Shown piece by piece: positions 845-4,417 of a stretch of DNA of 58,905 nt. The stretch lies in assembly GCA_026386845.1 (NCBI GenBank), contig JAPLMW010000028.1, forward strand, positions 68,729 through 127,633, written 5' to 3'. A program made the position numbers and the translations under genes. Each line of letters opens with the position of its first letter. Position 1 is the stretch's first letter. The notes under the pieces were generated by a model. That model searched no databases and was not told where the DNA came from. It worked only from the letters and a program-made list of their open reading frames with translations. The stretch is from Phycisphaerae bacterium (GTDB lineage: Bacteria; Planctomycetota; Phycisphaerae; Sedimentisphaerales; UBA12454).

Positions 845-885
845 AACAATATTGTAATTTTTTGTTTTTCAGCTACAATTTTGTA
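845..885. promoter_or_regulatory. Paired TACA-N4-TGTA-type boxes (probable autoregulatory operator of the activator gene)
   Basis: AACAATATTGTA 845-856 and TACAATTTTGTA 874-885, ending 19 bp before ATG 905; same motif occurs at the amtB and glnN promoters. Confidence 0.6.
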
Positions 886-904
886 TATTTTAAGGGCAAA
901 GACT

Positions 905-2434
905 ATGGCAGTAAAATTATCCAAAGAAGTGCAACTGCTGGGCGATATGGCAAGAGCTTTCGCCGAGTCGCTCGACCTTGAGCTGACACTCAAAGCCATT
1001 TTGAAATCTCTTGACACGCATGTCAAACTGCAAAAAGGAACTATTACCCTTCTTGACCCCGGCACTGAAACAATAAATATAAAAGTGGCCCACGGTTTAA
1101 GCGAAAAATCAAAGCAATTGGGCAGCTATAAAATCGGGGAAGGCATCACCGGCACAGTCGTCCAGACAGGCAGAGAAATTGTTGTGCCGGACATTTCCAA
1201 AGACAGCAGATTTCTTCACAAAACACACTCAAGGAAATCAACGCAGGGCAAACAAATCGCCTTTTACTGCGTTCCGATAAAACTCGAAGGCAGAACAATC
1301 GGCACTCTCAGCGTTGACAGACAGGTTCAAAAAGGCGACGATGCAGAGGCTCACCTGAATCTTCTGAATATCATCGCCACAATGGTAGCACAGGCTGTAA
1401 AACTAAACAAACTTGTCGAATCCGAAAAAAGACAGCTTTCAGAAGAAAACCTGCGGCTGAGACAGGAATTAAAAACACATTTCAATATAGATAATATGGT
1501 CGGCACGAGCAACGCGATGAAACAAGTTTACCGATTGATTGAGCAGGTCGCAGACAGCAACGCTACCGTGCTGATTCGAGGCGAAAGCGGCACAGGCAAA
1601 GACCTTGTCGCCCATGCGATACACTACAACAGCAGCAGAGCAAACAAACCCTTCGTAAAGGTAAATTGCACCGCCCTGCCCGAAACCTTGCTCGAAAGTG
1701 AGCTTTTCGGACATGAAAAAGGATCTTTTACAGGCGCAACAGAAAGAAAAATCGGCAGATTCGAGAGAGCCAACGGCGGCTCTATTTTCCTCGATGAAAT
1801 AGGCGATTTTTCCGTAAATTTGCAGATTAAACTGCTGAGGATTATCCAGTTCAGAGAATTCGAACGGGTAGGCGGGACTGAAACCATAAAAGCAAATGTA
1901 AGAATCATCGTCGCTACCAATAAGAACCTCGAAGAACAAATCAAAGAAAAACTATTTAGAGAAGACCTGTATTACAGGATAAATGTTTTCCCGATTTACC
2001 TGCCGCCGCTGAGAGAACGAAAAGATGATATTATGCTCATGGCCGACTATTTTCTCGAGCAGTTTTCAAGAGAAAATAATAAAAAAATTACGCGTATCTC
2101 AACACCGGCAATCGAGATGCTTACGAGCTATCACTGGCCCGGAAATATAAGAGAATTGGAAAACTGTATTGAAAGAGCTGTTCTTCTATGTAATGACGAA
2201 GTCGTGCGCTCGGAACATCTGCCGCCTTCACTGCAAATGATTAAAAAAAGCGATGCTCTACCGGGGCGATCTCTTATAGAGATTATAGAAAATAAGGAAA
2301 GAGAACTTATTATTGATGCCCTTAAAAAATACGGCGGTCAACAAAGAAAAGCCGCAGATGAACTGGGTGTTACGGAAAGAATCCTCGGATATAAGATTAA
2401 AAAATACGGTATCTTCCCCAAACTTCTCTCCTAA
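905..2434 (+). CDS. NifA-like sigma54-dependent activator (GAF - AAA+ - Fis-type HTH)
   Basis: GAF with YKIGEGITG; Walker [24 protein letters not shown] (GAFTGA loop variant); [17 protein letters not shown]-terminal HTH. ATG 905 preferred over TTG 881. Confidence 0.92.
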
Positions 2435-2437
2435 AAA

Positions 2438-2479
2438 TACAATAATGTAATTAAAAAACAGTTCTTATACATTATTGTA
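2438..2479. promoter_or_regulatory. Upstream activator sequence: paired TACA-N4-TGTA boxes
   Basis: TACAATAATGTA 2438-2449 and TACATTATTGTA 2468-2479 are exact reverse complements, 30 bp apart, about 90-130 bp upstream of a sigma54 promoter. Confidence 0.75.
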
Positions 2480-2569
2480 TAAAAAACAAATCATTGCATC
2501 ATCATATATTACTCCTATAACCTCATTTAATACAAGTCGTTATAACCTTTCCACATATTGCTAATTTTC

Positions 2570-2585
2570 TGGCATGAGTATTGCA
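2570..2585 (+). promoter_or_regulatory. sigma54 (-24/-12) promoter of amtB-glnK
   Basis: TGGCATGAGTATTGCA: GG-N10-GC, close to consensus TGGCAC-N5-TTGCA. Confidence 0.88.
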
Positions 2586-2638
2586 CTATATCATAAAAAA
2601 TACTTTGTTTTTAAGAGATGCAATAAGGAGAACAAAAA

Positions 2639-3877
2639 ATGTATGCTAAAATCGACAGCGGCGACACCGCATGGGTACTTATATCGGCGGCACTTGTTAT
2701 GCTGATGACGCCGGGGCTGGCATTTTTCTACGGCGGGCTTGTCAGACGAAAAAATTACCTCAGTGTTCTTATGCAATGCTTCATCGCCCTGGCCGCCCTT
2801 AGTATTCAATGGGTGATATTCGGATACAGCCTGTCTTTCGCTCCAGGCAACAGCTTTATAGGCGGCCTGCAATGGTTCGGACTTAAAGGAGTCGGACTCG
2901 AACCATACGCTGCCTACAGTGCTACTATCCCACATCAAGCATTTATGATATTTCAAGCAATGTTTGCGATAATCACACCTGCTCTTATTATAGGCGCGTT
3001 TGCGGAGCGAATGAAATTCTCGGCGTATCTGGTCTTTATACTGCTGTGGGCAACTTTTGTGTATGACCCAATCGCTCACTGGGTCTGGGGCAGCGGCGGA
3101 TGGCTGAGAAATATGGGCGTTATGGATTTCGCCGGCGGAACGGTCGTTCACATCAATGCGGGCATCGCGGCATTAGTTACCGCGTTAATAATCGGCAAAA
3201 GAACCTGCTATGATAAATACGCAATTGCGCCGCATAATCTGCCGTTCAGCGTTTTAGGGGCTGCCCTGCTTTGGTTCGGCTGGTTCGGCTTTAATGCAGG
3301 CAGCGCACTGGCCGCTAATGGCATCGCGGTAAACGCATTCGTTGTTACCAATACCGCTGGAGCTGTGGCGGCGCTGACTTGGGCATTGATTGACTGGAAG
3401 CTTAACGGTAATCCTACAATGCTCGGAACCATATCCGGAGCAGTCGCGGGATTGGCGGCCATTACGCCAGCGGCGGGATTTGTCGGCATAGGTGCGGCAT
3501 TGATAATCGGCATCGCTGCCAGCATCTTTTGTTTCATTGCCGTCAGTTTTGTGAAACGTACATTTCATTATGACGATTCGCTGGACGCGTTCGGCGTACA
3601 CGGCATAAGCGGTTTCTGGGGAACTTTAGCAACGGGACTATTCGCATCCAAGGCCATAAACCAGGCCGGTGCCGACGGGCTGCTTGCGGGAAACAGCAAA
3701 CAATTTTTTGTACAGCTTATCGCAGCGGTTGCAACAGTAGCTTACGCATTCATTGGTACGTACATCATCTACAAATTGATTGATGCAGTCATCGGCGTAC
3801 GAGCAACTGAAGAAGACGAAGCAATAGGGCTTGACCTGGCTGAGCACAATGAGCGTGCTTATACAATGCTGGAATAA
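2639..3877 (+). CDS. amtB: Ammonium transporter
   Basis: [58 protein letters not shown]. Confidence 0.97.
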
Positions 3878-3903
3878 ACCAAAATATCAAAAGGAAACTA
3901 AAT

Positions 3904-4245
3904 ATGAAACTGATAATCGCCATAATTCAACCTCACAGACTCGAACAAGTAAAAGAAGAACTCTATAAAGAAGAAGTTAATCTTATCACCGTAAGCGAAG
4001 TGCTCGGTCACGGCAGACAAAAAGGTGTAACCGAAGTCTATCGCGGTGTAAGAGAGACAGGAAACCTGCTGCGGAAAGTCCGCCTTGAAATAGCGGTAAA
4101 TGAAAACTTCGTCGAACGGACAATAAAAGCCATTATGACAGGCGCGAAAACGGGGCAGACCGGTGATGGGAAAATATTCGTGATAGACCTGCCCGAATGT
4201 ATCAGAATCCGAACCGGTGAACGCGGCGGTGAAGCTATCGGTTAA
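3904..4245 (+). CDS. glnK: PII nitrogen regulatory protein
   Basis: [32 protein letters not shown]; directly downstream of amtB. Confidence 0.95.
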
Positions 4246-4270
4246 TAAAAATAGACAATTACGTAAAAAA

Positions 4271-4312
4271 TACATTATTGTAGATTTATATATAAAAATC
4301 TACGATAATGTA
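4271..4312. promoter_or_regulatory. Upstream activator sequence: paired TACA-N4-TGTA boxes
   Basis: TACATTATTGTA 4271-4282 and TACGATAATGTA 4301-4312, 30 bp apart, within a 17-bp one-mismatch inverted repeat. Confidence 0.75.
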
Positions 4313-4401
4313 TATATGCAAAAAATTGTATTGAATTTGTATTCTTTTATAATATCCTTTACAACAATGACCTGCAGCAATTTTTGCATTAAATTACAAT
4401 A

Positions 4402-4417
4402 TGGTATGGTTATTGCA
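4402..4417 (+). promoter_or_regulatory. sigma54 (-24/-12) promoter of the glutamine synthetase gene
   Basis: TGGTATGGTTATTGCA: GG-N10-GC; same distance from the boxes as at amtB. Confidence 0.8.

Follow-up and report, generated by a model that had tools for sequence, protein, structure and literature searches.

The window analysed here is a stretch of 58,905 bp from a Phycisphaerae bacterium of the order Sedimentisphaerales (assembly GCA_026386845.1, contig JAPLMW010000028.1, positions 68,729 to 127,633 of the forward strand). Close to its beginning lies a gene for a sigma54-dependent activator, and downstream of it are amtB and a PII gene, which encode an ammonium transporter and a GlnK-like signal protein, and glnN, which encodes a type III glutamine synthetase. 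Three pairs of a short palindrome of the TACAWWWWTGTA type are found in this part of the window, upstream of the activator gene, of amtB-PII and of glnN (Table 1). These boxes are very probably enhancer (upstream activating) sites of the product of gene 905-2434, a sigma54 activator with GAF, AAA+ and Fis-type helix-turn-helix (HTH) domains. In the best explanation, which is drawn from comparative sequence analysis, this protein would be the general nitrogen-assimilation regulator of the bacterium.

Each palindrome is 12 bp long. It has a core of ACA-N4-TGT flanked by T and A, the centre consists of A/T only, and the DNA on either side of a box is mostly A/T. The full TACA-N4-TGTA form has one mismatch each in the box at 845, which starts with AACA, and in the box at 4301, which has TACG. 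The shorter form TAC-N6-GTA fits five of the six boxes, the exception being box A1, with A for the first T. The original prediction had placed the pairs at 845/874, 2438/2468 and 4271/4301, with spacings of 29 bp (activator gene), 30 bp (amtB) and 30 bp (glnN), and had put the first box 132 bp (amtB) and 131 bp (glnN) from the start of a sigma54 promoter; all of these values were recovered, the two promoters starting at 2570 and 4402. Its further remark that the activator gene has no visible sigma54 promoter also holds, as a scan of both strands 5′ of the ATG (905) gives no match. If transcription starts ~25 bp past the promoter GG, the dyad centres are at about -150 and about -120, a layout typical of a classical enhancer for a sigma54 activator.

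Table 1. Boxes, promoters and genes of the locus, with positions in the window
Feature	Position	Strand	Description
Box A1	845..856		AACAATATTGTA, A for T at base 1; distal box, activator gene; 3′ half overlaps -35-like TTGTAA; kept in orthologous loci as first box of the 29-bp pair
Sigma70-like promoter candidate	852..879	+	TTGTAA-16 nt-TACAAT, within boxes A1 and A2 (putative)
Box A2	874..885		TACAATTTTGTA; proximal box, activator gene; ends 20 bp 5′ of the ATG; 5′ half is -10-like TACAAT
Sigma54 activator gene	905..2434	+	509 aa; GAF, AAA+, Fis-type HTH
Box B1	2438..2449		TACAATAATGTA; distal enhancer box, amtB promoter; 4 bp past the activator stop codon; conserved block in alignment A1 (amtB-type promoters)
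Box B2	2468..2479		TACATTATTGTA; proximal enhancer box, amtB promoter; alignment A1
Conserved middle block	2530..2544		Consensus AACAAGnACTTAtA; columns invariant or nearly so in alignment A1
Sigma54 promoter of amtB-PII	2570..2585	+	TGGCATgagtaTTGCA; TGGCAT-N5-TTGCA; conserved in alignment A1
amtB, ammonium transporter	2639..3877	+	Only copy found in the genome
PII (GlnK-like) signal protein gene	3904..4245	+	Follows amtB
Weak third box	4254..4265		GACAATTACGTA; 17 bp 5′ of box C1; weight-matrix score 13.1 bits
Box C1	4271..4282		TACATTATTGTA; distal enhancer box, glnN promoter; conserved in alignment A2
Box C2	4301..4312		TACGATAATGTA, one mismatch; proximal enhancer box, glnN promoter; alignment A2
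Sigma54 promoter of glnN	4402..4417	+	TGGTATggttaTTGCA; TGGTAT-N5-TTGCA; conserved in alignment A2
glnN, type III glutamine synthetase	4521..6629	+	After the third box pair
gltB, gltD, glutamine-dependent NAD synthetase gene, carB	6708..17564	+	All on the same strand

Occurrence and conservation of the box pairs

The window has five exact matches to TACAN4TGTA where 0.47 are expected. When up to two mismatches are allowed, the paired pattern matches twice with a gap of 18 nucleotides (N18) and once with a gap of 17 (N17), compared with 0.00 in 100 shuffles for each. A motif scan of the genome assembly (2.40 Mb in 96 contigs, 95.8% complete) finds pairs spaced by 29-30 bp at these three sites only. 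The AT-rich DNA of the genome, 65.7 kb altogether, contains 18 boxes, seven of them at this locus, and three pairs, all of them at this locus. With a weight matrix for which only other genomes served as training data, the three pairs score 40.6-42.7 bits and the next best pair in the genome 19.7 bits. Lone high-scoring boxes are present outside the window at C7:13884, C7:14109, C33:8829 and C61:3641, and those at C7:13884, C33:8829 and C61:3641 are exact matches. These lone boxes on C7, C33 and C61 have no partner at 29-30 bp and none of the strict sigma54 matches listed coincides with them; the exact ones are treated as chance occurrences or as unexplained.

The pairs are conserved in other species. 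Among 33 orthologous loci, with activators 65-97% identical to that of the window, a pair is found within 200 bp 5′ of the activator start in 30, and a reversed control motif in none (0/33). At the activator gene, 29 of the 30 pairs have a spacing of 29 bp and one has 30 bp. When all loci are taken together, the distance between boxes shows sharp maxima at 29 bp (24 cases) and 30 bp (34 cases), with almost no other values within 12-80 bp. Forty-two further pairs, spaced by 30-31 bp, are found elsewhere in these loci, and a strict sigma54 match follows within 250 bp downstream in 31 of them. The promoter is 89-91 bp (3), 99-105 bp (21) or 135-136 bp (7) away from the second box, groups of distances that are roughly one and three helical turns apart. 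The first genes after the pairs are those for amtB, PII, glutamate synthase, an amino-acid-permease-PII fusion and a protein of 250-310 amino acids that belongs to no Pfam family; where a glutamine synthetase gene follows, it is type I in some species and type III in others. The motif tracks gene function, not gene order.

Alignments of the enhancer regions (A1 and A2) display four conserved blocks, which are box 1, box 2, a middle block and the sigma54 promoter, in otherwise diverged DNA. The middle block in amtB-type promoters reads AACAAGnACTTA. In the window this block, at 2530..2544 between the amtB enhancer and promoter, may be the site of a DNA-bending protein; the genome has one gene of the HU/IHF family. 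A second conserved block is found at the glutamine synthetase genes (window positions 4330-4365, TATTGAATTT...TTTGTAATATCTT), where it is located 3′ of the enhancer and 5′ of the sigma54 promoter; glnN and glnA promoters of different species have it in common (alignment A2, columns ~70-105).

The gene of the 250-310-amino-acid protein without a Pfam family is, in many relatives, the first to follow the activator gene and its box pair (for example L031:5213-5989, L032:7759-8538 and L037:7736-8545). Of ten such proteins tested, one has a match to the outer-membrane family Gcw_chp that barely exceeds the gathering score. The gene is followed by amtB or by the permease-PII fusion gene, and it is missing from this position in the window genome. 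The protein is a candidate for a nitrogen-regulated outer-membrane channel. The fusion itself, at L032:8609-10483 and L037:8616-10493, is a 625-amino-acid protein consisting of an amino-acid permease with PII at the C-terminal end. Its gene is under a box pair and a sigma54 promoter and has a free-standing PII gene after it.

A similar distribution is seen at the level of whole genomes. At up to two mismatches, 43 of 61 related genomes have the N18 pair pattern, compared with 1 of 61 for a control pattern. Full-length GAF-type homologues of the activator are found in 54 of the 61 genomes, and pairs occur in 42 of these 54 versus one of the seven that have AAA+-level matches only (G014, G021, G027, G031, G041, G049 and G053, with G031 and G053 placed in this group by inference from weaker best E-values). 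Six of the seven have no pair, although other activators are present in them.

Full-length homologues with 41-58% identity are also encoded in other classes of the phylum. A sample of 20 distant loci was taken from these classes, with proteins 49-55% identical to the query. In those that are G+C-rich, the box loosens to TAC(A/C)-N4-(T/G)GTA, which is TAC-N6-GTA. An exact TAC-N6-GTA box is found within 250 bp 5′ of the gene in 15 of the 20 loci. Its density is 3.49 per kb upstream of the gene versus 0.13 per kb over the remainder of the loci, and two control motifs have densities of 0.19 and 0.39 per kb. Several of the distant loci have, by eye, a lone box between TTGAC and TATGAT hexamers, and pairs 31-32 bp apart 5′ of downstream sigma54 promoters.

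The activator and its assignment to the boxes

The activator consists of a GAF domain (residues 24-165), an AAA+ domain (198-364; PF00158, 244.8 bits) with a GSFTGA loop at residues 273-278, and a Fis-type HTH (HTH_8, 462-501). The genome also encodes rpoN (375.5 bits, above the cut-off). The N-terminal domain of the activator is GAF and not a receiver domain, and no partner kinase is encoded at the locus. On the curated nifA model, TIGR01817, the protein passes marginally with 534.7 bits (cut-off 528.85), and on the ntrC model, TIGR01818, it scores 344.5 (cut-off 558.6). It is 37-42% identical to annotated plasmid-borne NifA proteins. An N-terminal cysteine cluster is absent, the first cysteine being C122, and there is no cysteine in the linker between AAA+ and HTH, residues 432-509 having none. 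The best match to nifH in the genome reaches 37.7 bits (cut-off 394.35), nifH is found in only 3 of the 61 related genomes, and the NifA upstream activating sequence TGT-N10-ACA has no match in window positions 1-6900. The protein is a member of the NifA family by architecture but is not a nif-specific activator, because nifH is absent from the genome and rare in relatives and because TGT-N10-ACA is missing from that part of the window. The name NifA would be misleading for a protein from a genome without nifH, and the automatic label "nif-specific activator NifA" would be wrong for it and for its many relatives in nitrogenase-free genomes.

Five other sigma54 activators with a Fis-type HTH are encoded in the genome; a GAF domain is found only in that of the window. 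Three of the five have a receiver domain, one has no N-terminal domain and one has an unrecognised N-terminus. All five score below every curated family cut-off, that of NtrC included.

The boxes are assigned to the adjacent activator because pairs accompany its gene in 30 of 33 orthologous loci, because pairs precede sigma54 promoters of nitrogen genes in spite of changes in gene order and identity, and because pairs are found so much more often in genomes with a GAF-type activator than in those without one. The proposal that the activator binds these boxes and drives amtB and glnN, which had been made from the window sequence, thus has support from comparative genomics. Each palindrome would bind a dimer by way of the C-terminal Fis-type HTH domains. 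Two palindromes 30 bp apart, i.e., three helical turns and on the same face of the helix, would nucleate the active oligomer ~120-150 bp 5′ of the start sites of amtB-PII and glnN. DNA looping, possibly helped by a bending protein at the conserved block between enhancer and promoter, would then bring the ATPase to the sigma54-RNA polymerase and lead to promoter opening. As judged from NifA proteins, the N-terminal GAF domain is the presumed point of entry of the nitrogen signal, which would reach it either as a small ligand, e.g., 2-oxoglutarate, or by way of PII.

Several observations speak against this assignment. Three orthologous loci (L055, L062 and L063) are without an upstream pair, and in L055 the 237 bp available upstream cover the 200-bp search distance. 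No strict sigma54 match lies downstream of 11 of the 42 further pairs. Twelve of the 54 related genomes with a GAF-type homologue have no pair at up to two mismatches, and G021, which is 97% complete, has two pairs but no GAF-type homologue was found in it. The related genomes are non-independent samples, and the co-occurrence counts are a description and not a test because of this. Two public RNA runs gave only short contigs inside the coding parts of the activator gene, amtB and glnN, which show neither transcription starts nor levels.

Two other explanations of the pairs were considered. The pairs might be a chance or compositional feature of AT-rich intergenic DNA without a regulatory role, and in keeping with this the three intergenic regions have a G+C content of 23-33% and the motif has only A/T at its centre. 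Dinucleotide shuffles of the same three regions, however, yield a pair in 0/5000, 0/5000 and 3/5000 cases, the rest of the genome has no further pairs in spite of its AT-rich DNA, the control pattern is found in a single related genome, and the pairs are kept across diverged intergenic DNA. Shuffles, genome scan, control pattern and conservation together rule out such an origin, the probability of which is close to nil. The boxes might also be real but be bound by another protein, either another sigma54 activator or a nitrogen repressor that is not an activator, and the GAF activator would then bind elsewhere. One such candidate is a receiver (REC)-type activator on contig C3 that has a histidine kinase gene adjacent to its own and scores 417.8 bits on TIGR01818, the best on the NtrC model. 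The existence of five further activators with Fis-type HTH domains is compatible with this explanation, as is the comparative nature of the assignment of box to protein. Against it, pairs flank the GAF activator gene itself in nearly all orthologous loci, a TAC-N6-GTA box is present even 5′ of the 49-55% identical homologues in other classes, and genomes with other activators but no GAF-type gene are, in six of seven cases, without pairs. In addition, the C3 protein and the other four score below every curated cut-off (NtrC, 558.6), AnfA, which has the same architecture as the GAF activator, binds this class of motif experimentally, and the aligned enhancer regions leave no other conserved dyad to which the GAF activator could bind. 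Binding by another protein is considered improbable, and the adjacent GAF activator is the preferred binder.

Regulation of the activator gene

The pair upstream of the activator gene (845-885) coincides with a sigma70-like promoter candidate, TTGTAA-16-TACAAT, that matches the consensus at 9 of 12 positions. This candidate is weak on its own, because 17 such sites are found in the region where 9.2 are expected, and it is not independent evidence because it is made of the boxes themselves; on both counts it detracts from the case for autorepression. The pattern of conservation adds support to the candidate, as TACAAT is found at the start of the promoter-proximal box in 24 of 30 loci versus 23 of 84 enhancer boxes. 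Two boxes 29 bp apart over the -35 and -10 elements of such a promoter would let the activator limit its own synthesis. The bound activator probably represses its own gene, since binding over its own promoter should exclude RNA polymerase. NtrC at glnAp1 and glnLp is an example of repression from a site over a promoter. Autorepression, which had been put forward in the original prediction, is a reasonable inference in view of the sigma70-like overlap and the bias towards TACAAT, but falls short of a demonstration.

It is less probable, although by no means negligible, that the activator binds at 845-885 without autorepression, with a positive or neutral effect, or that the pair functions mainly as the -35 and -10 elements. 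Sequence alone does not tell the sign of autoregulation, and the TTGTAA and TACAAT hexamers make the boxes part of the promoter itself. Moreover, two diazotrophic relatives have a box or pair downstream of the sigma54 promoter of a paralogue, which indicates that other geometries are in use. On the other hand, a protein over the -35 and -10 hexamers normally shuts out RNA polymerase, and the lone box between TTGAC and TATGAT in high-GC relatives is at a classical repressor position. In addition, 29 of 30 loci keep the spacing of 29 bp distinct from the 30 bp of the enhancers; the activator promoter seems to be under a constraint of its own, which favours autorepression.

Related systems and neighbouring features

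An arrangement of this kind is that of NtrC, which has tandem dyads about three helical turns apart 5′ of the sigma54 promoters of glnA, amtB and glnK, and whose sites overlapping a sigma70 promoter give negative autoregulation. The enhancer layout of the window is similar, and autoregulation from a site over the promoter would work alike. NtrC differs in that it has a receiver domain and is phosphorylated by NtrB, whereas the window protein has a GAF domain instead and a different DNA motif. In addition, no protein of the window genome reaches the NtrC cut-off.

NifA has the same domain architecture as the window protein, in keeping with the TIGR01817 score just above the cut-off. The differences are the lack of nifH in the window genome, the lack in window 1-6900 of TGT-N10-ACA, given as the NifA upstream activating consensus in the available parts of PMC7294313, and the lack in the window protein of the linker cysteine motif that many NifA proteins have according to the same source. 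A further difference is that a separate paralogue adjoins nifH in a diazotrophic relative.

The three nifH-bearing relatives provide some observations of their own. Two of them have a paralogous GAF activator near nifH, adjacent to it in G051 and ~8 kb away in G044 (sites at L090, G051:C29, 4203-4311 and 5825-6270, and at L089, G044:C1, 14218-14374 and 4320-4970). The gene of this paralogue is preceded by a sigma54 promoter of its own, and a TACA-N4-TGTA box or pair is located between that promoter and the ATG. The nifH promoters of these relatives have other repeats, either of the GTGAAA...TTTCAC type or GTTACAATTATTTCCAT twice, and not the boxes. The boxes at the paralogue genes hint at a cascade in these relatives, in which a nif-specific activator would be under the general regulator.

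The motif had been considered unlike known ones. This is correct for the sites of NifA, NtrC, GlnR/TnrA and NtcA, but AnfA, DVU1949 and DVUA0143 had been left out of the comparison. AnfA of Rhodobacter capsulatus, also a GAF-AAA+-HTH protein, binds two TAC-N6-GTA palindromes before a sigma54 promoter, as described in the available parts of the report by Demtroder et al. (PMC7294313). These sites are directly downstream of its own gene, were analysed by electrophoretic mobility shift assays and with reporter mutants, and are two similar sites that are both required for full activation (PMC7294313). Likewise, the motif obtained for VnfA1 of Azotobacter vinelandii by chromatin immunoprecipitation sequencing is GT(T/A)C-N6-GTAC, mostly with two per promoter at a similar spacing (PMC9542535, in part). 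The alphaproteobacterial AnfA system thus resembles that of the window in architecture, in TAC-N6-GTA dyads and in the location of sites between the activator gene and the next sigma54 promoter. AnfA and VnfA differ from the window protein by the cysteine motifs of their GAF domain, which it does not have (PMC7294313). Their targets are alternative nitrogenase genes, whereas those of the window are amtB-PII and glnN.

A closer counterpart with respect to targets is DVU1949 of Desulfovibrio vulgaris, which is predicted to be a single-component sigma54 activator of nitrogen metabolism and transport (Kazakov et al. 2015, PMC4641369; here and below as far as the available parts of that paper go). 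Its predicted targets include the ammonium transporter-PII genes DVU1231-1233 and the type III glutamine synthetase gene DVU1258, both with sigma54 promoters, its own operon and other nitrogen genes, and its predicted sites are 16-mers of the TTACA-N4-TGTAA type (PMC4641369). The two systems share the absence of a receiver domain, the TACA-N4-TGTA core with T/A flanks, and the presence of amtB-PII, glutamine synthetase and the regulator's own operon among the targets. They differ in phylum, in the larger regulon predicted for D. vulgaris (9 operons; PMC4641369), and in spacing, as the D. vulgaris sites listed have no fixed distance of 29-30 bp and those of DVU1258 are 45-136 bp apart. For DVUA0143, sites of the form CTACA-N4-TGTAG have been predicted at nitrogenase operons in Desulfovibrionales, and its N-terminal domain resembles those of AnfA and VnfA (PMC4641369). 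Its sites have the same 12-bp core as those of the window, but the targets are nif operons and paired sites are typically 18 bp apart. The motif itself is not new, because AnfA binds TAC-N6-GTA (PMC7294313) and the sites predicted in Desulfovibrionales share TACA-N4-TGTA (PMC4641369).

A GAF activator encoded on the D. vulgaris plasmid is 42% identical to the window protein, the best of the plasmid-borne homologues read, and the recognition-helix region is similar. No box is found near its gene at the plasmid locus L097, in agreement with the report, in the available parts of PMC4641369, that no promoter was found near it. The DNA-binding-domain string labelled DVU1949 in Additional file 2 of that paper occurs verbatim in this plasmid protein (L097:3935-5482), a label at odds with the plasmid location. 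By elimination, the plasmid GAF activator should be DVUA0143, and the labels DVU1949 and DVUA0143 may be swapped in the table of PMC4641369.

A functional parallel is provided by EbpA of Leptospira interrogans, a GAF-type sigma54 activator that is needed for amtB expression and binds upstream regions as a recombinant protein; it differs in having two GAF domains and in being FhlA-like (as summarised in a review, PMC12655853). A NifA-like gene of Nitrospira (PMC6606698) was also considered, but its neighbours are nxr genes and it has no bearing on the system of the window. A description of this regulon in Planctomycetota was not found in the literature searched, and a survey of sigma54 mentions Planctomycetia regulons but, in the parts available, not this motif (PMC12316311).

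The system of the window corresponds, in planctomycetes, to a type of regulon that had been predicted before in a different phylum, and its DNA motif class is one already measured for AnfA. It is set apart by its phylum, by the strict 29/30-bp geometry of the pairs, by an operator that forms part of the promoter of the activator gene and by the absence of the cysteine motifs of AnfA/VnfA and of many NifA proteins. The DNA specificity of AnfA is now tied to predicted nitrogen-assimilation regulons of two distant phyla, a link that bears on the origin of the NifA/AnfA/VnfA group. It can be proposed, as a tentative idea that may well not hold, that the GAF-AAA+-HTH activator and the TAC-N6-GTA box are an ancient nitrogen-assimilation module shared by Planctomycetota and Thermodesulfobacteriota, and that the nitrogenase-specific AnfA and VnfA, and perhaps NifA, are later specialisations. 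If so, the ancestral role of the 'NifA family' would be the control of amtB, PII and glutamine synthetase, and the later AnfA and VnfA would have kept the ancestral DNA specificity. Planctomycetota would have kept the module as a counterpart of NtrC, with a two-dyad enhancer three turns apart and an autorepression operator embedded in a promoter. For a phylum with little regulatory genetics, the locus offers a testable model of a nitrogen regulon that has one activator, a defined operator and few target operons, i.e., amtB-PII, glutamine synthetases, glutamate synthase and the permease-PII fusion. The fixed spacings, which are 29 bp for the pair at the promoter of the activator gene and 30 bp for the enhancer pairs, provide, together with the phased distances to the promoters, a simple geometry for bench tests.

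Downstream of glnN, the gltB-gltD-NAD synthetase-carB row has no boxes of its own, none being found between 4406 and 15435, and co-transcription of glnN with gltB, gltD, the NAD synthetase gene and carB is possible. Between glnN and gltB, a hairpin followed by T's (GGCCGATTT...AAATCGGC, window 6662-6700) may be an attenuating terminator inside the glnN-gltB-gltD-nadE-carB row. On the other side of the locus, the intergenic region between panB and the activator gene contains a conserved element (window 636-750, with a conserved core at ~689-747). Rfam gives no match within window 1-12000, this element included. It has an RNA-fold z-score of -4.0, and the stretch 689-747 is 77-93% conserved 5′ of the activator gene in several other genera. 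A possible open reading frame of 23 codons (637-708) ends in a perfect hairpin (706-740) that is followed by T's. The element could be a small RNA or a small-protein gene plus terminator.

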